Below are positions 2,422 through 62,300 of a stretch of DNA of 64,000 nt, piece after piece. Location: positions 64,354 through 128,353 of the forward strand of contig JAQTPI010000001.1 of NCBI GenBank assembly GCA_028748975.1, read 5' to 3'. Under the pieces are notes generated by a model that saw only the letters and a program-made list of their open reading frames with translations, was not told the DNA's origin and searched no databases. Source of the stretch: Patescibacteria group bacterium. Lineage in GTDB: Bacteria > Patescibacteriota > Patescibacteriia > UBA2196. The position numbers and the translations under genes are program-made. How positions within the stretch are numbered: position 1 is the first letter of the stretch; every line of letters begins with the position of its first letter.

Positions 2422-3789
2422 TTATTTTTCTAATTTTCCTTCCAAACTCCACGGCCCGGCCTTGATAATTTTAGTTTTAACAATTTTTCCTATCAAATTG
2501 TTGATTGTTGACTGCTTACTGTTGGCTGAAATTTTTATATCCTTAAAATTTCTCGTCTTACCAAAATATATAATATCATTGTTACTTTTATTGCTTTTAT
2601 TACTATTAATACTTTTATTCCTTTCAATTAATACTTCTATATTCTTACCAACCATCTTTTTATTATTTTCCAAAGCTGTCTTTTTCAAAATTTCATTTAA
2701 GGCCACGCGGCGCTGGGTTTTTTCTTCAGCCGAAATACTATCTTTCAGTTTGGCGGAAGCGGTGCCAGCGCGTGGAGAATATTCCGCCAAATAGGCCAGA
2801 TCAAATTTTATTGATTTCATGAGATTGGCGGTTTTTTGAAAGTCTTGCTTTGTTTCATTGGGAAAGCCCACAATAATGTCGGTACTAATGCTAATATTGC
2901 GAATAGAACGACGAATCTTGCGAATAAGATTCAAATATTTTTTGGAATCATACTTTCTATTCATCGCTTTCAAAATTTTATCCGAACCGGCCTGGAGCGG
3001 CAGGTGCAAGTAGGGGATGAGGTGCTGGCAATTTTTAAAACATTTTATCAAATCTCCCGACATATCTTTTGGGTGGGAGGTAATAAAACTTAACCAATAA
3101 TCTCCTGGAATAGAATTAACTAATTTTAATAATTGTGGAAAGTTCACTTTACTTTTTTGAAATTTGAACTTTGAAATTTTATTGGAAATTGGAAATTGGA
3201 AATTGGAAATTTGTGAAACATAACTATTCACATTCTGGCCCAATAATATAATTAACTTATATCCTTGAACAACTAATTTGTTCACCTCCGAAATTATTTC
3301 TTCGGCTGGTCGGGAAACTTCACGCCCACGCGTGAAAGGCACGACGCAGTAAGAACAGAAATTATTACAGCCAGTCATAATTGGAACATAGGCGATAAAT
3401 TTTGAATTATAGTTTGGTAAAATTGAGAAATAATTTATGTCTTTATTGTTAGTTGTTAATTGTTGGTTGTTAATTTTATTTAACCAATTATCTAAATTTT
3501 TAATATCTAAAATATAATCAGCGTGTTTTTCAAACTTATTTTTATCCGCTACCAAAACGCAGCCTGTTAAAATGATTTTAGCTTTTGGATTTTTTTTTCT
3601 GATGTCATCCAGTTTGCCCCAGACGCGGTTAACAGCTGTTTGCCGCACCGAACATAAATTTAAAATTACCAAATCCGCCGAAGCCAGATCCGCCGGTTGC
3701 AAATTATTTTTTTTAAGATAGCCGGCGATTCTTTCCGAATCCGACCAGTTCATCTGGCAGCCGTAAGTGATAATGTGATAAGTTTTCAT
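2422..3789 (-). CDS. miaB: tRNA-i6A37 methylthiotransferase, radical SAM (MiaB family)
   Basis: YGCQMN N-terminal motif plus radical-SAM and TRAM regions. Contains an in-frame low-complexity insertion derived from the ggaaatt tandem repeats at 3140-3230. Confidence 0.85.
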   Translation of the reverse strand: MKTYHIITYGCQMNWSDSERIAGYLKKNNLQPADLASADLVILNLCSVRQTAVNRVWGKLDDIRKKNPKAKIILTGCVLVADKNKFEKHADYILDIKNLDNWLNKINNQQLTTNNKDINYFSILPNYNSKFIAYVPIMTGCNNFCSYCVVPFTRGREVSRPAEEIISEVNKLVVQGYKLIILLGQNVNSYVSQISNFQFPISNKISKFKFQKSKVNFPQLLKLVNSIPGDYWLSFITSHPKDMSGDLIKCFKNCQHLIPYLHLPLQAGSDKILKAMNRKYDSKKYLNLIRKIRRSIRNISISTDIIVGFPNETKQDFQKTANLMKSIKFDLAYLAEYSPRAGTASAKLKDSISAEEKTQRRVALNEILKKTALENNKKMVGKNIEVLIERNKSINSNKSNKSNNDIIYFGKTRNFKDIKISANSKQSTINNLIGKIVKTKIIKAGPWSLEGKLEK

Positions 3790-3794
3790 AAAAA

Positions 3795-3884
3795 GCTACG
3801 AATGTACGAATTCTACGAATATACGAATGGCTACAAAACAACCTTGCAATTATTCGTACATTCTTTTTATTCGTAAATTCGTAG
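3795..3884. repeat. family R4 phased-heptamer inverted array (TACGAAT x4 ... ATTCGTA x3), upstream of the miaB start
   Basis: gctacgaatgtacgaattctacgaatatacgaat...attcgtacattctttttattcgtaaattcgtag. Heptamer spacing is 8-11 bp. Confidence 0.75.
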
Positions 3885-8069: not shown

Positions 8070-8228
8070 ACGAGCGCGCCTATCGGCGAATACCTAATAA
8101 CAACCACCCCGAGCCGACTGCTGTCGGCTCACCCCTCCTTCGAAAGGAGGGGATAACCACGCTGCTATCCTCCCCTTTCGAAGGGGAGGTCTCCGACAGC
8201 AGTCGGAGGGAGGAGTTGTAATTATTCG
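8070..8228. repeat. family R3 composite GC-rich palindromic module (CCCCTCC-TTCGAA-GGAGGGG units plus a CGCCTATCGGCG box)
   Basis: cccctccttcgaaaggagggg and tcctcccctttcgaaggggagg are nested inside gagccgactgctgtcggctc ... ccgacagcagtcgg. Confidence 0.7.
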
Positions 8229-8324
8229 CAAAATTTGCCAGTAATTAGCATTAATTCGTAGCCGTTTTTCCACTAATATTAGCCAAAAAACAGCATTTTA
8301 AGGTATTTATTAAAGTTATCCACT

Positions 8325-8352
8325 TGACAAGAGATTTTAGACATGCTATAAT
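8325..8352 (+). promoter_or_regulatory. sigma70-type promoter
   Basis: TTGACA-16-TATAAT. Preceded by a conserved TTAAAGTTATCCACTT module. Confidence 0.65.
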
Positions 8353-14146: not shown

Positions 14147-14186
14147 CGCGAATTCCTCGCGAATTACCGGCGAATGAATCGCGAAT
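14147..14186. repeat. family R4 half-array (CGCGAAT x4 at an exact 11-bp period)
   Basis: cgcgaattcctcgcgaattaccggcgaatgaatcgcgaat, in a divergent promoter region. Confidence 0.65.
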
Positions 14187-14254
14187 ATTAATTGTGGATA
14201 AGTATAGTATAGCATTTTTTTGTTTTCAAAACAAATGTATGGTATAATAAAAAT

Positions 14255-19173: not shown

Positions 19174-19264
19174 CCCGAATTCTTACGAATGTTGTCAGAA
19201 TGTTTCCGAATGATGATAATCGTAATATTCGGGTAAATTCGGGGGTTATTCGTACTAATTCGGG
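19174..19264. repeat. family R4 inverted array (xCGAAT x4 ... ATTCGxx x4)
   Basis: cccgaattcttacgaatgttgtcagaatgtttccgaat...attcgggtaaattcgggggttattcgtactaattcggg. Confidence 0.7.
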
Positions 19265-20232: not shown

Positions 20233-21293
20233 ATTTTTATCACTGCCACTCGCCACTTCTTGGCCAAATCTTTCTTAAATTTCACATTTGCTTTGGGCAG
20301 GTGTTTTTTTATTAATTTTTCCAAAAGCGGTTTTTGAAATGGTAAAATTTCTAAAAATATTGTTAATTGTTTATTGTTTATTGTTAATTGTTTAATCTGT
20401 TTCAATAGTTTTTCATATAAAAATAATCCATTATTTTTTGCCACCAGTGCCGTGCGCGGTTCAAATTTTAATCCTTGATAATTCCGGCGGTAAATTTTTT
20501 CTGGTAAGTACGGTAAGTTGGCGGTAACAATAATTTTCATGTCATTTTGAAGCCCCGAAGGGGCTGATGGAATCTCAAGATCCCATCGGTCCGATTTTAT
20601 CGGACCTCGGGATGACAAAAGAAAATTAAGCAGGTCGCTTTTAATAAATCTTATTTTTTTAGTAAGTCCGTGCAACCGCGCGTTTTTTTTCGCCACGGCG
20701 AGCGCGCGCTCTGAAATATCAGTGGCGACAGCGTCAATTAACAGCCAACAATTAGCAACTAGCAAATTTTTTAGAATTGATATAATAAGACAACCACTTC
20801 CTGTGCCGACATCAATAATGATTATTTTTTGTTTTTTTGTCCCGAGTACTCGGGATTGTTTATTGTTAATTGTTAATTGATTAATTACTTCTTCCACCAT
20901 CATCTCCGTCTCCGGCCGGGGGATTAAAACATTTTTATTCACCCAGAAATCCAGCCCAAAAAATTCTTTCTGTCCTAAAATATACGCCACCGGCTCGTTT
21001 TTACTTCGCCGGGCAATAAATTTTTTATATTTTTTTTCTTGGGATTTAGTCAATTCAAGTTCCGGGTGAGCGTAGAGAAGAGATTTACCAATCGACGACC
21101 TCTCTCTATCTCTCCCCTTATTAAGGGGAGAGGGATGAACAACCCCCCCTCCTTTACAAGGAGAGGGTCGGGGGTGAGGTCGTTGGTTTAAAATATTTAC
21201 TAATAAAATTTCCGCGTCCAAACCCGCCGACTCAATTCCGGCTTCTTGTAATTTTTTAATAGCCCAATTTAAAATTTGACAGATTTTTGGCAT
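20229..21293 (-). CDS. prmC: release factor glutamine N5-methyltransferase (PrmC/HemK)
   Basis: DVGTGSGCL and NLPY(L) motifs, immediately downstream of prfA. Contains two in-frame palindromic repeat insertions (20541-20616 and 21099-21182) plus LTINNKQ tandem repeats. Confidence 0.8.
   Translation of the reverse strand: MPKICQILNWAIKKLQEAGIESAGLDAEILLVNILNQRPHPRPSPCKGGGVVHPSPLNKGRDRERSSIGKSLLYAHPELELTKSQEKKYKKFIARRSKNEPVAYILGQKEFFGLDFWVNKNVLIPRPETEMMVEEVINQLTINNKQSRVLGTKKQKIIIIDVGTGSGCLIISILKNLLVANCWLLIDAVATDISERALAVAKKNARLHGLTKKIRFIKSDLLNFLLSSRGPIKSDRWDLEIPSAPSGLQNDMKIIVTANLPYLPEKIYRRNYQGLKFEPRTALVAKNNGLFLYEKLLKQIKQLTINNKQLTIFLEILPFQKPLLEKLIKKHLPKANVKFKKDLAKKWRVAVIKI
20541..20616. repeat. 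family R1 palindromic element inside the prmC CDS
   Basis: gtcattttgaagccccgaaggggctg...cggacctcgggatgac. In-frame. Confidence 0.7.
21099..21182. repeat. family R3 module inside the prmC CDS
   Basis: ctctccccttattaaggggagag...ccccccctcctttacaaggagagggtcgggggtgagg. In-frame. Confidence 0.7.
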
Positions 21294-22684: not shown

Positions 22685-22697
22685 ATATTGTTTGATT

Positions 22698-22754
22698 GTC
22701 ATCCTGACGACCCACGATCCGCCAGCTGGCGGACGGGGGAGGAAGGATCTCGTG
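22698..22754 (+). repeat. family R1 element
   Basis: gtcatcctgacgacccacgatccgccagctggcggacgggggaggaaggatctcgtg. Confidence 0.7.
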
Positions 22755-22855
22755 ATCGAAGCGATGGGTAATAAAGATATAAGGAAATAAGGATATAAAA
22801 GGTTGGTTCTATATTTCCTTATATCTTTATATCCCTATATCTTTTCTATAAAATT

Positions 22856-22895
22856 ACGAGATTCCTCGTCCCGAGTATTTGGGACTCGGAATGAC
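22856..22895 (-). repeat. family R1 element
   Basis: acgagattcctcgtcccgagtatttgggactcggaatgac. Confidence 0.65.
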
Positions 22896-22902
22896 AACCA
22901 CT

Positions 22903-23332: not shown

Positions 23333-23370
23333 TGCGAATTAGTTGCGAATGCTGTGCAAATTTTGCGAAT
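23333..23370. repeat. family R4 half-array (TGCGAAT x3), upstream of rpmE
   Basis: tgcgaattagttgcgaatgctgtgcaaattttgcgaat. Confidence 0.6.
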
Positions 23371-26975: not shown

Positions 26976-27012
26976 ATTCGCACCATTCGCACATAATTCG
27001 CACTAATTCGCA
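26976..27012. repeat. family R4 half-array (ATTCGCA x4) in the gap 5' UTR
   Basis: attcgcaccattcgcacataattcgcactaattcgca, downstream of an extended -10 TGGTATAAT. Confidence 0.65.
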
Positions 27013-28667: not shown

Positions 28668-28694
28668 TTAGCACTCTCTTGACGAGAGTGCTAA
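28668..28694 (+). promoter_or_regulatory. CIRCE operator (HrcA binding site)
   Basis: Perfect TTAGCACTC-N9-GAGTGCTAA immediately upstream of hrcA. Confidence 0.9.
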
Positions 28695-29469: not shown

Positions 29470-29560
29470 GCTACGAATGTACGAATAAAACGAATTTACA
29501 AATAAATCACAAAATTATTCTGCGGCCATTCGTATATTCGTACGATTCGTAAATTTGTAG
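29470..29560. repeat. family R4 inverted array between hrcA and grpE
   Basis: gctacgaatgtacgaataaaacgaat...attcgtatattcgtacgattcgtaaatttgtag. Same terminal sequences as 3795-3884. Confidence 0.75.
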
Positions 29561-30083: not shown

Positions 30084-30096
30084 ACCCAAAAAAATG

Positions 30097-30136
30097 TCAT
30101 TCCGAATCAGCCAGCAGGCGGAGAGGAATCTCGTTA
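30097..30136 (+). repeat. family R1 variant, 3' of the grpE stop
   Basis: gtcattccgaatcagccagcaggcggagaggaatctcgtt. Confidence 0.6.
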
Positions 30137-30195
30137 TCTCCCCCTTAAGAAGGGGGAGCGCGAGGGGGTCAACTCGCCGCTAGGCGCGTATAATT
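30137..30195. repeat. family R3 module
   Basis: atctcccccttaagaagggggagcgcgagggggtcaactcgccgctaggcgcgtataatt. Confidence 0.65.
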
Positions 30196-30197
30196 AA

Positions 30198-30242
30198 CGA
30201 GATCCCTCGTCGTCCCGAAGCGCCGGGACTCCTCGGGATGAC
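30198..30242 (-). repeat. family R1 element
   Basis: cgagatccctcgtcgtcccgaagcgccgggactcctcgggatgac. Confidence 0.7.
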
Positions 30243-30257
30243 AATCACCTATGAATT

Positions 30258-33198: not shown

Positions 33199-33207
33199 CA
33201 CCGCAGT

Positions 33208-33249
33208 GTCATCCTGAGTCCCGAGCACTCGGGGCGAAGGATCTCGTTG
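33208..33249 (+). repeat. family R1 element, 10 nt after the dnaK stop
   Basis: gtcatcctgagtcccgagcactcggggcgaaggatctcgttg. Confidence 0.75.
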
Positions 33250-33348
33250 TAGAATTATGAATTAAGAATTAAGGACGGCGGGCCGACATTCGTCGGCCCG
33301 CCGCAGCTCACGTTTGTCATTCCGGGCTTGACCTGGAATCCAGAAAAA

Positions 33349-34513: not shown

Positions 34514-34694
34514 AAAAACCTCCTTTTGTTTGTTTTTCCTCCCAATATAAATTGTGCTTTTATCTTATCATTAATAATTAAATCCTGTCAAGCGGCAGAA
34601 AATAATATTTGTCATTCCGGCCCGAGAGCCGGAATCCAGAAATTGTTTCTCTGGATTCCCGCTTTCGCGGGAATGACAAAGAAAGAAAATTTTT

Positions 34695-34976: not shown

Positions 34977-35022
34977 TGACGAGATCCCACCACCCCACAA
35001 ATGTGGGGTTCGGGATGACAAC
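34977..35022 (-). repeat. family R1 element
   Basis: ctgacgagatcccaccaccccacaaatgtggggttcgggatgacaa. Confidence 0.7.
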
Positions 35023-45668: not shown

Positions 45669-45699
45669 CACTCTTTTAGAAGGAAAAGAAGTTATCCAC

Positions 45700-45790
45700 T
45701 TTTATTGGTTATTGTCAGATGTTAAAAAGTGGTGTATAATTAATGTAGAGTGGTAAAAAGTGGAAAAAAGTGGATAACTAGTGTAAAACA
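45700..45790 (+). promoter_or_regulatory. dcw promoter with MraZ operator repeats
   Basis: TTGTCA (45712-17) -17- TATAAT (45735-40). AAGTGG boxes recur at a 10-bp period downstream (45727, 45751, 45758, 45768). They are flanked by the inverted pair GTTATCCACTT (45704) / AAGTGGATAAC (45767). Confidence 0.7.
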
Positions 45791-45838: not shown

Positions 45839-45882
45839 ACGGGATCCCTCGGCCGATGAAATATCGGCCTCGGGATGACAAA
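45839..45882 (-). repeat. family R1 element in the mraZ 5' UTR
   Basis: acgggatccctcggccgatgaaatatcggcctcgggatgacaaa. Confidence 0.7.
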
Positions 45883-45891
45883 CACAGTAAC

Positions 45892-46323
45892 ATGTTCATC
45901 GGCGAATATCTTCATGGTTTAGACGCTAAAAACAGATTGGCTATTCCAGCCAAATTTCGGGCTGAACTGAAAAGCGGGGCAGTCTTGACGCGTGGTTTGG
46001 ATTCCTGCCTTTTTCTTCTAACCAAAAAAGATTGGGAGAAATTTATGGAAAAAATCTCCGGCTCGCCTTTGGGCAAAGCCGATGCCCGCGGGTTTTCCCG
46101 TTTTATGCTGGCTGGCGCCATGGAAGTGAAATTAGATGGGCTTGGCCGCATTCTCTTGCCCGATTATCTTAAAAAATATGCCGCTTTGGCCAAAAAAGCC
46201 GCCATCATCGGCGTCAACAACCGTTTGGAAATTTGGGACGAAGCCAAATGGGCGTTGTATAAAAAAGGCATTGAAAAACAGGCTGACGAGCTGGCGGAAA
46301 GAATGGGAGAGTTGGGCGTGTAA
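45892..46323 (+). CDS. mraZ: transcriptional regulator MraZ
   Basis: Duplicated DXXXR-type MraZ domains (LDAKNRLAIP and LDGLGRILLP). The upstream ORF-track extension reads through a repeat element. Confidence 0.85.
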   Translation: MFIGEYLHGLDAKNRLAIPAKFRAELKSGAVLTRGLDSCLFLLTKKDWEKFMEKISGSPLGKADARGFSRFMLAGAMEVKLDGLGRILLPDYLKKYAALAKKAAIIGVNNRLEIWDEAKWALYKKGIEKQADELAERMGELGV

Positions 46324-47289: not shown

Positions 47290-47380
47290 TGCGAATTATT
47301 ACAAATTTTGTGCGAATTTTACGAACAGATTATTTGATGTTTATTCGCACAATTCGCAGGTAATTCGCCATTAATTCGCA
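47290..47380. repeat. family R4 inverted array after rsmH
   Basis: tgcgaattattacaaattttgtgcgaattttacgaac...attcgcacaattcgcaggtaattcgccattaattcgca. Confidence 0.75.
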
Positions 47381-51386: not shown

Positions 51387-51424
51387 ATTCGCAAAATTCG
51401 CCGGTAATTCGCACTAATTCGAAT
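51387..51424. repeat. family R4 half-array abutting a promoter
   Basis: attcgcaaaattcgccggtaattcgcactaattcgaat, ending 12 nt before the TTGACA at 51436. Confidence 0.6.
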
Positions 51425-51435
51425 AATTACAAAAT

Positions 51436-51464
51436 TTGACACCTTTTTTAATTTGTCTATAATA
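51436..51464 (+). promoter_or_regulatory. sigma70-type promoter
   Basis: TTGACA-17-TATAAT upstream of the zinc-ribbon peptide. Confidence 0.6.
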
Positions 51465-51537
51465 GAATATATATAAAATAAAAATAAAAACCAGCCGTGT
51501 CTTAAAAGGCCTAAGCTGGATTTTAAAGAATAAAGTT

Positions 51538-51705
51538 ATGAAAGAATGTTCTTTTTGCGGCATGCCTCTTAAAAGCGATGCCGAAGCTGACCTTTGTGAT
51601 TTTTGCCTCAATGATGACGGCAAAGAAATGCTGGCCGCTCCCGCAGCGGAAGAGCTTGATTTGGAAAACCCGACTTCCACCGGCTGGACCGAGACAGTGG
51701 AGTAG
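51538..51705 (+). CDS. hypothetical small zinc-ribbon peptide
   Basis: 55-aa ORF with CxxC...CxxC. Consensus promoter at 51436-51464. Not in the ORF track (too short). Confidence 0.35.
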   Translation: MKECSFCGMPLKSDAEADLCDFCLNDDGKEMLAAPAAEELDLENPTSTGWTETVE

Positions 51706-51725
51706 TGTTTTTTGTTTTTTTAGCA

Positions 51726-51773: not shown

Positions 51774-51800
51774 TGAAAATTTATTGTGATTTACAGTAGG

Positions 51801-51832
51801 AGCGAGTTTTTAACTTGCTCTTTTTTTATTCG
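51801..51832 (+). terminator. intrinsic terminator
   Basis: gagcgagtt-tttaa-cttgctc followed by T7. Confidence 0.5.
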
Positions 51833-51966
51833 CAAAATTCGCCCGCCTCAACTCGCGGTCGCTCATCGACGCGAGGCGGGCTCTAAATTCGCATTTATTA
51901 GCAGTTAATTTTTGGCTAAGATTAGCCAAAAAAATGAATTATTTTAAAGTTATCCACTTTTTGCTC

Positions 51967-54904: not shown

Positions 54905-55450
54905 ATGAAAAAAAGTAGCTGGCTGGTACTGTTGATGATTTTTATAGCCATTTTTCAGACAAAATTGGCGTTATCACAGAGTAGCTCTGTTTCTACATCT
55001 CAAAACATTCCGATTTTTTTGGACATTCCCGACAGCGTCGTGATAAATTTTGCCAAATCTTTGACGCCTGGTGCTCTACCACCCACTAATCCGCCGCAGC
55101 CCTGGAAAAAATGGGATATCTGGCCTGGTTATGAAAAATCATATTTCTTAAACTTTGATTATCGGCGATCAAATAACCGAATGCCGTTTATATCTTTTAT
55201 GACTAATTATGATACGGTATATTCTTATTTTATTATTTTTAGGGTTCCTAAAAATCAGATCCAACCAAAGTTTGACCCAATCCTTAATGATCGGAAAGTC
55301 CGAAGAAAAATAATCTTTCACAAAATCGGATATTGGCGTTATTGCTGCCTTTGTGGTGGCCAGGCGATGAATATCACCCCCAATCACATCGCCCGCTCCT
55401 TGGCCGATCTGGAAGGAAATTTTGAACAAGACTATTTGGCTAAACCTTAA
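54905..55450 (+). CDS. hypothetical secreted protein
   Basis: AAGGAGG site and signal peptide MKKSSWLVLLMIFIAIF. The TTG start at 54797 in the ORF track coincides with the -35 of its promoter and is rejected. Confidence 0.45.
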   Translation: MKKSSWLVLLMIFIAIFQTKLALSQSSSVSTSQNIPIFLDIPDSVVINFAKSLTPGALPPTNPPQPWKKWDIWPGYEKSYFLNFDYRRSNNRMPFISFMTNYDTVYSYFIIFRVPKNQIQPKFDPILNDRKVRRKIIFHKIGYWRYCCLCGGQAMNITPNHIARSLADLEGNFEQDYLAKP

Positions 55451-55511
55451 TAGGTTTAGCCAACCCGAAGTCTCATGACTCCGGGTTTTTTTATTTGGCC
55501 TAATGGCCTCC

Positions 55512-55553
55512 TACGAATTACGAATCCCGAGTACTCGGGACGAATATACGAAT
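55512..55553. repeat. family R4 inverted half-sites flanking the TCCCGAGTACTCGGGA palindrome
   Basis: tacgaattacgaatcccgagtactcgggacgaatatacgaat. Confidence 0.6.
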
Positions 55554-55558
55554 GACGG

Positions 55559-55620
55559 TTATCCCCTCCTTAATAAGGAGGGGAAAGGGGAGGTAAACTC
55601 GCCGATAGGCGCGTATTATT
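55559..55620. repeat. family R3 module
   Basis: ttatcccctccttaataaggaggggaaaggggaggtaaactcgccgataggcgcgtattatt. Confidence 0.65.
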
Positions 55621-57593: not shown

Positions 57594-57594
57594 T

Positions 57595-57638
57595 GTCATC
57601 CTGACGACCCCGAGGCCTCGGGGGAGGAAGGATCTCGT
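57595..57638 (+). repeat. family R1 element, 2 nt after the alaS stop
   Basis: gtcatcctgacgaccccgaggcctcgggggaggaaggatctcgt. Confidence 0.75.
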
Positions 57639-57639
57639 A

Positions 57640-57765
57640 AATATCCCCTCCTTTCGAAGGAGGGGTGCGAGCGAGAGCGAGCGGGGTGGTTGTGGTAGAA
57701 TATTTTTACAACCCCTCCGTTCCGCTGCGGCGGAACACCTCCCCTTCGAAAGGGGAGGATAACGA
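57640..57765. repeat. family R3 composite module
   Basis: atcccctcctttcgaaggaggggtg...cctccccttcgaaaggggagg with ccgttccgctgcggcggaac. Confidence 0.7.
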
Positions 57766-57808
57766 CGAGATCCCTCGTCGTCCCGCGCCCGTGACTCCTC
57801 GGGATGAC
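57765..57808 (-). repeat. family R1 element
   Basis: acgagatccctcgtcgtcccgcgcccgtgactcctcgggatgac. Confidence 0.7.
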
Positions 57809-57824
57809 ACCCCACTAAAACTTT

Positions 57825-60337: not shown

Positions 60338-60567
60338 CTAGACCCTAATGTTTGGGGCTTATATTCTTACAATGGAATACTTCCTAAACCCGAAAGTTTT
60401 GGCTAACCTTAGCCAAAAATATGACTTTTGGGTGGTAGGTTTTGTAAGAAATATGAGCTATCCACAAAAGAAAGCTCGTATTTTTTTAGTGCTTTTTGTC
60501 ATTCCGAACTTGTTTCGGAATCTCAAAAGTAGATGCTGAAATAAATTCAGCATGACAAACAAAATAA
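60338..60567 (+). ncRNA. candidate structured leader or sRNA between the 60305 promoter and infA
   Basis: Hairpins ttggctaa-cc-ttagccaa, attccgaa-cttgtt-tcggaat, atgctgaa-ataaa-ttcagcat and a terminator-like gagct..agctc-T7 at 60456-60490. The ORF-track product at 60348 is low-complexity. Confidence 0.25.
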
Positions 60568-61129: not shown

Positions 61130-61200
61130 ACCAAATCCCAAATTCCAAAATACAAACAATTGGCGCTCCGCGCCAACCGTTTGGAACTTGGTGCTTGTAA
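61130..61200. repeat. inverted-array element (R6 family), upstream of rpsM
   Basis: gcaccaaatcccaaattccaaaatacaaac...gtttggaacttggtgcttg. Confidence 0.6.
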
Positions 61201-61219
61201 TTTGTAATTTAAATATTTT

Positions 61220-61609
61220 ATGGCTCGTATCGCTGGTGTCAACCTACCCAATGATAAAAAAATTGATGTCGCTTTGACCTACCTTTATGGCATTGGTCTG
61301 ACTTTGGCGCTCAAAATTTTGGCCGACATGAAAGTTGACAGAAATAAGCGCGTCAAGGAATTAACCGATGACGAAGTTAATGGTTTGCGCAATGAAATTG
61401 AAAAAAAATACCGCGTGGAAGGTGAATTGCGCCGTGAAATTTTGGGCAACATCAAACGCTTGAAAGAAATTAGTTGCTATCGCGGCAGCCGCCATTCCAA
61501 AAATTTACCAGTCAGGGGCCAGCGCACCAAAACCAATTCCCGTACCGTGCGCGGCAACAAGCGTCACACCATGGGCTCGGGCCGCAAACCAGCCGGACAA
61601 AAAACCTAA
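61220..61609 (+). CDS. rpsM: 30S ribosomal protein S13
   Basis: [10 protein letters not shown]....GIG S13 signature. Confidence 0.95.
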
Positions 61610-62209: not shown

Positions 62210-62300
62210 TGCGAATTATTGGCGAATTACTTGCGAATTGTGCAAATAGCTACCAAATAATCTGTTCGCAAAATTCGCACAAAATTCGTAAGAATTCGTA
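62210..62300. repeat. family R4 inverted array between rpsK and rpsD
   Basis: tgcgaattattggcgaattacttgcgaatt...ttcgcaaaattcgcacaaaattcgtaagaattcgta, ending 11 nt before the rpsD ATG. Confidence 0.75.

Follow-up and report, generated by a model that had tools for sequence, protein, structure and literature searches.

A 64,000-nucleotide stretch of a Patescibacteria group bacterium (assembly GCA_028748975.1, contig JAQTPI010000001.1, positions 64,354 to 128,353; hereafter the window) carries dispersed elements of about 90 bp, and single arms of such elements, which are built from spaced heptamers around a core of ATTCG or CGAAT and repeatedly end shortly before start codons. Are these arrays control sites of the genes behind them, or mobile inserts that are tolerated in the spacers of operons? 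The original prediction, made from the letters of the window, had leaned towards arrays bound by a DNA- or RNA-binding protein, and had called the copies a family like miniature inverted-repeat transposable elements (MITEs) or bacterial interspersed mosaic elements (BIMEs), which is the right general class; it made no link to the intervening sequences (IVSs) of 23S ribosomal RNA (rRNA) or to the gene of a GxxExxY nuclease. In the present analysis the arrays were found to belong to a dispersed family whose positions turn over between relatives, which also occupies 23S rRNA genes and which is associated with the GxxExxY gene. We hold it to be rather probable that the ~90-bp elements and the single arms are non-autonomous members, lacking an open reading frame (ORF), of a selfish cassette family of the IVS type, and those in the window would most likely derive from such a cassette as MITE-like copies without an ORF, or else be empty targets for it. 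A role in regulation alone is unlikely, and side-effects on the expression of adjacent housekeeping genes may occur.

Arrays of spaced heptamers in the window and in other genomes

ATTCGYA occurred 47 times in the window compared with 23.4 ± 4.7 times in dinucleotide-preserving shuffles, and the matches were tightly clustered. ATTCG/CGAAT was the conserved core of the repeat units, and 11 arrays of at least three such units at 7–13 bp spacing were counted, versus a mean of 0.027 and a maximum of 1 in 300 first-order Markov simulations; as had been proposed, this is a dispersed family and not low-complexity sequence. All ten copies and both partial copies of the original prediction were found in place (Table 1), comprising five inverted pairs of ~90 bp with spacers of 20–35 nt and no coding capacity, five single arms, and two degenerate or interrupted arms, none of them in rRNA. 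An apparent twelfth array at 2898-2925 turned out to be MiaB coding sequence for LIRKIRRSIRNI (Ile-Arg codons) and not an element. GC-rich small palindromes are nested within the arrays at 55526-55540 and 51844-51886, as repeats within repeats.

The bases flanking the core define subfamilies, with the units TACGAAT (A, spacing 8-9-8), TGCGAAT (B, spacing 9/11-11-10), CGCGAAT (C) and CCGAAT (D). The element at 3795 (minus strand) can be aligned with that at 29470 (plus strand) across both arms and the spacer, and so can 47290 with 62210, indicating that entire elements were copied in the window, and this in two subfamilies or more. By RNA folding the two arms pair, as had been foreseen, into long interrupted hairpins (z-scores −3.2 to −7.5 for the window elements), in which heptamer pairs with heptamer, and the inter-heptamer spacers, which are not complementary, form symmetric internal loops. 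The arrays matched no Rfam family at gathering thresholds, relaxation to E < 5 returned only spurious miRNA-like matches, and a tRNA search of the window found none.

A scan for ATTCGYA-N1-4-ATTCGYA-N1-4-ATTCGYA, with one genome per species, yielded at least 120 loci (loci outside the window carry numbers with L below), against a chance expectation of about 34 by a back-of-envelope estimate; thus the arrays are not restricted to the window. With plain tandem repeats set aside, the listed loci were mostly labelled Patescibacteria or Bacteroidota, the former including Parcubacteria/Paceibacteria, Zambryskii-, Moran-, Uhr-, Magasanik- and Nealsonbacteria and Saccharibacteria, and some array-bearing metagenome-assembled genomes carried the label Gammaproteobacteria, which is quoted here as given. 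In viral contigs, used as a negative control, 126 of 134 arrays were plain tandem repeats. The listed loci share the architecture ATTCGTAnATTCGTAnnn(n)ATTCGTAATTCGTAG with spacings of 8, 10-11 and 7-8 bp. The original prediction had read a ~10.5-bp phasing as a sign of cooperative binding on one face of the helix, an idea ruled out by the 7–8 bp spacings, which belong to the conserved architecture.

Copies in 23S rRNA and the gene between the arms

IVSs of 23S rRNA classically insert in helix 25 or 45. The 23S rRNA gene of L048 (2078-6187, minus strand) contains two full ATTCG elements, with a third in the 23S-5S spacer; L017 has one full element inside its 23S rRNA gene, and in L089 a single arm adjoins a 23S rRNA segment. 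One L048 copy lies at position ~583 of the Rfam large-subunit (LSU) rRNA model, in what we assume to be the hairpin of helix 25, and so at one of the two sites typical of IVSs, and the second 23S copy lies further 3′. When folded, the inserts give almost perfect hairpins by which the rRNA helix is lengthened, with −93 to −105 kcal/mol per 200-nt segment in L048. The same L048 gene also holds a LAGLIDADG homing-endonuclease ORF (3028-3492), and a group I intron adjoins the array of L089. The 23S IVS of Coxiella has been described as selfish, with inverted repeats, a small ORF, a copy number that varies between strains and 2–3 tandem heptamers (GACAGAT) before the ORF start (PMC4990558), and the rRNA genes of the Candidate Phyla Radiation (CPR) are reported to contain, at IVS sites, numerous short insertions that lack an ORF and are uncharacterised (PMC11270868).

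Some loci have a gene between the arms. Among the loci selected by their arrays, every GxxExxY gene was flanked by outward arms, in L072 (within nusG/rplK), L041 (Prevotellaceae, POR alpha/beta), L140 (a relative of the window organism), L093 and, as a fragment, L076; the sole other ORF between arrays was an ordinary 298-aa gene in L090, which lies between two separate arrays. The enclosed ORF encodes a GxxExxY protein of 125–141 aa (TIGR04256, PF13366 PDDEXK_3) with the PD-(D/E)XK nuclease fold, which is related to junction-resolving and Cas4-type nucleases, and with a conserved catalytic D...(D/E)xK. When six Patescibacteria homologues were picked by protein similarity only, all six had at least two ATTCG units 0–7 nt past the stop codon, and four to five of them had CGAAT or CGAAA units directly before the ATG; the gene of Xylanibacter ruminicola (L272) is likewise situated between ATTCG arms. 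In sum, ATTCG arms accompany the gene in 12 of 13 independent loci, and in seven of the eight chosen by the protein alone.

Wherever both neighbours were visible (11 of 11 cases: L140, L072, L041, the six Patescibacteria, L272 and L275), the gene sits inside a conserved operon and in operon orientation, interrupting for instance yidD/yidC, the hydrogenase small and large subunit genes, atpE/atpF, nusG/rplK and POR alpha/beta. PF13366/TIGR04256 comprises about 13,800 clusters at 50% identity in a representative protein library; a single peptide pattern found no relatives in the viral collection, and a sequence search of the PDB gave no significant match. The same library also holds many proteins of 270–900 aa with a complete GxxExxY domain at one end or in mid-protein, which are probably gene calls that read through from a cassette into the neighbouring host gene.

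From these loci a complete cassette would consist of an outward array of 3–4 (C)TACGAAT-like units, the GxxExxY gene, and the inverse ATTCGTA(G) array. Such cassettes, and derivatives of them that lack the gene, would insert into the very short spacers within transcribed operons and into apical helices of rRNA, where the pairing of the arms would turn the insert into an extra hairpin that RNase III or the ribosome could tolerate; the nuclease would mobilise the element, and RNase III might excise the hairpins. The arrays are probably the platform on which the nuclease of the element, a host factor, or both of them recognise it. More tentatively, GxxExxY PD-(D/E)XK proteins could be the mobility enzymes of IVS-type elements, spreading cassettes and ORF-less copies alike through operon spacers and rRNA helices: their multimers might dock on the short repeats of both arms, much as transposases do on subterminal repeats, and then cleave or resolve the palindrome once it is extruded, while arm pairing at the RNA level would make each insertion harmless. 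If true, the elements would form a new class among the mobile elements of prokaryotes, the origin of rRNA IVSs would be explained, and PF13366 would gain a function.

The association of gene and arms can also be told the other way round, and this is the main rival within the selfish-element picture. The ORF-less palindromes would be primary, either self-propagating or maintained by the host, and GxxExxY would be a parasite of palindrome centres, similar to a homing endonuclease and inserting for example by cutting the extruded cruciform, so that full cassettes would be occupied sites and the window copies empty ones. The ORF always lies exactly between two arms; ORF-less copies are far commoner, with ~130 arms versus five genes in the array-selected loci; the kinship of the fold to junction-resolving and Cas4-type nucleases suits such a role; and a close relative of the protein is found between arrays of another unit (L275, see below), as expected if the gene moves between palindrome families. 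Nevertheless, the dispersal and turnover of the ORF-less palindromes are left unexplained, and no pair of empty and occupied states was found at one orthologous site, so we regard this account as unlikely, though worth keeping in view.

The enclosed gene bears likewise on a system of repetitive extragenic palindromic (REP) units, BIMEs or REP doublets forming hairpins (REPINs), mobilised by a REP-associated tyrosine transposase (RAYT) of the IS200/IS605-like Y1 type. Similar size, a population of doublets plus singlets, intergenic location and a terminal GTAG would all suit it. Yet each arm here is an array of direct repeats that is not itself palindromic, GTAG stands at the 3′ outer end as part of the last heptamer, and only GxxExxY lies between arms, with no Y1 transposase in ~1.3 Mb of array-bearing loci by ORF inspection, a family-wide RAYT search not being included. 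Such a system is thus very improbable.

Arrays in relation to genes, promoters and orthologous sites

If the arrays served the genes next to them, they should be found again beside the same genes in relatives. In the closest relative found (L121, S4 87% identical), the rpsK/rpsD spacer measures 23 nt and has no element; an apparent similarity between the 62210 spacer and this empty spacer was too short to interpret. The syntenic relatives L136, L138 and L140 (GrpE 76%, 76% and 66% identical, respectively) kept the promoters of the window, namely the extended −10 before gap, TTGACA-17-TATACT before rpmE and TATAAT at the hrcA end, and their slots between −10 and ATG hold another palindromic family, TGTCATYCYGA...GGGATGACA. 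The gap leaders of L136 and L138 contain TGTCAT-family palindromes instead of the array, the rpmE leader of L138 has a promoter identical to that of the window and a different insert, and the grpE slot is filled by a TGTCAT-family element in all three relatives. Conversely, prfA is preceded by a full ATTCG element in L138 and by the TGTCAT family in the window. Judged by sequence comparison, these differences in occupancy are insertion-like turnover and not the conservation of regulatory sites, and the functional tie to start codons that had been supposed is weak.

The TGTCAT family itself is present in about 12 copies in the window, in the form TGTCATYCYGA ... GGATCTCG/CGAGATCC ... YCGGGATGACA, at 1074-1166, 20540-20617, 22697-22896, 30095-30243, 30559-~30620, 33207-33325, 34610-34678, ~34990-35020, ~45840-45880, 51239-~51290, 57594-57809 and 60497-60557. 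Its copies span operon spacers, from just past a stop codon to 5–15 nt before the next ATG.

A bias of the arms towards start codons had been reported for the window, and here the short distances are real: six arms end 7–47 nt before the starts of miaB, rpmE, gap, grpE, rpsD and one ORF, with the distances that had been given (Table 1). Outside the window the bias was less clear, since among the matches listed, 92 single arms had a callable neighbour, of which 55 pointed toward a gene start and 37 toward the stop codon of a convergent gene, the latter at distances of 1–17 nt, as short as at starts. The constant feature was instead that the outer ...ATTCGTAG terminus abuts the boundary of a coding sequence, as expected for inserts in very short spacers, and the short arm-to-ATG distances likewise follow from the shortness of the intergenic spacers. 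In the window, three full elements fill operon-internal spacers (hrcA/grpE, rpsK/rpsD and rsmH/ftsL-like), with their left arms facing the 3′ ends of hrcA, rpsK and rsmH. The transcribed motif was AUUCGUA in some cases and UACGAAU in others, which argues against a single-stranded RNA-binding factor, and selection for a hairpin on the sense strand was rejected because the antisense fold was more stable in 16 of 21 co-directional cases (Wilcoxon p = 0.017).

The window organism uses canonical sigma70-type promoters, with six perfect TTGACA-17/16-TATAAT matches, and in the window the arrays had no fixed relation to them. The arms at 14147, 23333 and 26976 lie between a promoter and the ATG, and those at 8224, 19227, 51387 and 51828 lie upstream of a −35. 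Two half-arrays, 14147 and 23333, had been thought to abut a −35; they are actually downstream of minus-strand promoters, in 5′ leaders. The idea of leaderless promoters was ruled out by the conserved sigma70-type promoters upstream of several arrays. Two known repressors were considered as binders and rejected. MraZ has its own operator at mraZ (45856-46323), where four to five AAAGTGG units with a 10-bp period follow directly after the −10 (TATAAT 45735-45740) at 45727-45777, of textbook MraZ type. For HrcA, the canonical CIRCE element TTAGCACTC-N9-GAGTGCTAA overlaps the hrcA promoter at 28668-28694; a second conserved TATAAT at the hrcA 3′ end suggests an internal grpE promoter.

These positions bear on the view of the original prediction that the arrays act in cis, as DNA operators or enhancers or as mRNA leader sites, for a conserved factor controlling highly expressed housekeeping genes. 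The six start-proximal arms of the window, three of them between a sigma70-type promoter and the ATG, are consistent with it, as are many arrays of other Patescibacteria, which stop 5–13 nt short of the ATG in highly expressed genes (rpsF, rplB, rplK, rplM, rplA, rpsP, fusA, dnaK, groEL, secY, tig and ssb). A module of promoter, array, hairpin and terminator in L138, L140 and window 55450-55560(-) could moreover be a decoy small RNA. The view is opposed by the replacement of arrays with an unrelated palindrome at orthologous promoters, by arms that point toward gene ends almost as often as toward starts, by the left arms at the 3′ ends of upstream genes, by the copies inside 23S rRNA, by the greater stability of the antisense hairpins, by the separate operators of MraZ (AAAGTGG x4) and HrcA (CIRCE), and by the lack of Rfam family matches. 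Nor are the sites fixed relative to a promoter as those of an operator array would be, for they occur upstream of a −35, downstream of a −10, after stop codons and in rRNA. Taken together, control in cis as the main role of the arrays is quite improbable. In annotation, arrays before ribosomal-protein or chaperone genes occupy the places where one would look for promoters, leaders and ribosome-binding regions, and they should not be taken as regulatory motifs without further evidence.

Several points weigh in turn against the selfish IVS-type cassette that we favour. The Patescibacteria genes that adjoin arrays are mostly very highly expressed, which could reflect a function and not a preference of insertion. 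About half of the arrays are single arms, and the stereotyped four-unit build is better preserved than simple MITE decay predicts. Target-site duplications were sought at the window elements and none was established, the flanks being AT-rich and the termini ambiguous: TAAA flanks 62210 on either side, as TAA(A/G)A does 47290, and none was seen at 3795 and 29470. The 64-kb window contains no GxxExxY gene or pseudogene. Finally, a Prevotella GxxExxY protein (L275), 70% identical to an ATTCG-flanked one, is flanked by CWGATT arrays with 9–10 bp spacing, so that either the specificity for the unit is quick to evolve, or the encoded protein does not read the arrays. The L275 arrays, inverted (CACAGATT / CTGATT, 9–10 bp) and set within ~75-nt repeats at 950-1200 and 1590-1900, resemble the GACAGAT heptamers of the Coxiella IVS.

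Table 1. Heptamer arrays of the window, with their units, surroundings and predicted folds
Coordinates	Type	Strand	Units and structure	Position	RNA fold
3795..3884	Full element, subfamily A	.	Left arm 4 x TACGAAT 3797-3828, spacing 8-9-8; spacer 3829-3851; right arm ATTCGTA / degenerate ATTCTTT / ATTCGTA / ATTCGTAG	Left terminus 7 nt from miaB ATG (3789, minus strand)	−36.2 kcal/mol, z −7.5
8224..8260	Degenerate single arm, subfamily B	+	ATTCGCA aa ATTTGCC agta ATTAGCA tta ATTCGTA	64 nt upstream of perfect promoter 8324-8352	
14147..14186	Single arm, subfamily C	-	4 x (T)CGCGAAT, 11-bp spacing	5′ leader, between minus-strand promoter TTGAAA-17-TATACT (14229-14201) and ATG 14135; arm end 11 nt from ATG	
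19174..19264	Full element, subfamily D	.	CCGAAT / ATTCGGG units	Left arm faces DUF3048 gene 3′ end; right arm 17 nt upstream of TTGACA 19281	−35.0, z −4.6
23333..23370	Single arm, subfamily B	-	TGCGAAT x3 + TGCAAAT	5′ leader, between TTGACA-17-TATACT (23416-23388) and rpmE ATG (23285); arm end 47 nt from ATG	
26976..27012	Single arm, subfamily B	+	4 x ATTCGCA, spacing 9-11-10	Between extended −10 (TGgTATAAT, ~26948) and gap ATG (27060); arm end 47 nt from ATG	
29470..29560	Full element, subfamily A	.		Fills hrcA/grpE spacer; starts 8 nt past conserved TATAAT; ends 10 nt before grpE ATG (29568)	
47290..47380	Full element, subfamily B	.		Starts 2 nt past rsmH (mraW) stop, within dcw cluster; downstream gene ftsL-like ORF (47502)	
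51387..51424	Single arm, subfamily B	+	Spacing 9-11-10	12 nt upstream of perfect promoter 51436-51463	
51828..51893	Subfamily B arm	+	~42-nt palindrome splits units 2 and 3		
55512..55553	Single arm, subfamily A	-	Interrupted by small palindrome cccgagtactcggg	Faces terminator of upstream gene; no gene start ahead	
62210..62300	Full element, subfamily B	.		Fills rpsK/rpsD spacer; ends 10 nt before rpsD ATG (62311)	

Some other features of the leaders and promoters were noted alongside. The start regions of all window genes fall into two classes: accessory and hypothetical genes have a strong AGGAGG Shine-Dalgarno sequence, which is missing from the genes of ribosomal proteins, chaperones, tRNA synthetases and glycolysis, where the leaders are just A/U-rich. 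At 51436-51706 a perfect TTGACA-16-TATAAT drives a 55-aa Cys-rich ORF (CxxC...CxxC, 51539-51706), with a terminator at 51798-51822. A DnaA-box-like octamer, (A)AGTTATCCAC, immediately precedes the −35 in three strong promoters (8316-8323, 45692-45699 and 51950-51957), with minus-strand copies at 14194, 13204, 28774 and 45770 (seven copies versus 1.6 expected), and it also stands upstream of an array in L114. A CGCCGATAGGCG-like 12-mer at 8077, 12580, 12640, 30175 and 55600 (five copies versus 0.1 expected) usually lies just before a TATAAT-like hexamer; in L138 and L140 such a module precedes an ATTCG array with a hairpin and a terminator behind it, an arrangement that could represent a small RNA. 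Upstream of rpsM (61148-61252) a weak match to the ribosome-binding site of the alpha operon (S4 leader) was obtained with 25.6 bits and E 0.079, below the gathering score.

Comparison with known systems

The searchable literature yielded no description of the association between arrays and GxxExxY, of arms made of spaced heptamers, or of a spread from rRNA to mRNA leaders across two phyla; for a paper on a 77-bp inverted repeat of P. gingivalis, the heptamer matches proved to be oligonucleotide sequences only. The general kind, i.e. palindromic selfish inserts, IVSs and MITE-like repeats, is already known, and these three features may be new to it. The 23S IVSs have been known since 1990, and to our knowledge they have no accepted origin or mobility mechanism. 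The ATTCG family joins short rRNA inserts, one nuclease family that awaits characterisation, and the palindromic repeats that abound in mRNA leaders when genomes are ultra-small, in a testable system with defined cis sites (the heptamer arrays) and one candidate trans factor.

Like the 23S IVSs of Salmonella, Leptospira, Campylobacter and Coxiella, the elements are inverted-repeat inserts that extend an rRNA helix, in L048 at what is presumably the helix-25 site, and IVSs, too, are sporadic, horizontally spread and regarded as selfish, some of them with one small ORF of unknown function. The classical IVS ORFs, however, encode S23p/four-helix-bundle proteins (PF05635), whereas the enclosed ORFs here were GxxExxY (PF13366) in all cases found; most ATTCG copies lie in mRNA leaders and operon spacers and not in rRNA, their arms are arrays of spaced heptamers, and their excision by RNase III is putative. 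With MITEs they share shortness, multiple copies, terminal inverted repeats, subfamilies, differences of presence between relatives, and a longer relative that carries a gene between the same ends; they differ in that target-site duplications were not established in their AT-rich flanks, in that the cassette gene encodes a ~130-aa PD-(D/E)XK nuclease and no recognised transposase, and in that each arm is built from 3–4 repeated units.

The REP/BIME/REPIN-RAYT systems resemble them in forming palindromic doublets and singlets of ~100 nt between genes, also within operons, with many copies in each genome, but REP units are individually palindromic with a 5′ GTAG and are associated with Y1 transposases, neither of which was seen here. 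Rickettsia palindromic elements (RPEs) are comparable as selfish palindromic inserts of reduced genomes that are tolerated within functional genes and RNAs; unlike the ATTCG elements, they insert in frame into protein-coding genes, and have neither heptamer arrays nor an associated nuclease gene. The TAACTGA heptamers of Beggiatoaceae, Cyanobacteria and Bacteroidetes occur in sets of 2–6 direct repeats, intergenic and often just upstream of starts, and are similar in their patchy cross-phylum distribution and unknown function; they differ in being direct repeats, with a single indirect (inverted) set in the draft genome, and no link to a flanked ORF or to rRNA was reported for them (PMC4679880).

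Among regulatory arrays, the MraZ operator is comparable in its short direct repeats at ~10 bp between promoter and start codon, but the AAAGTGG array of the window's own mraZ is unrelated to the ATTCG arrays. More generally, transcription-factor arrays of the MraZ, OmpR-PhoB or CtsR-like kind differ from the ATTCG units, which lack the uniform helical phasing of 10–11 bp (8/10-11/7) and which have been lost or replaced where relatives retain the promoters.

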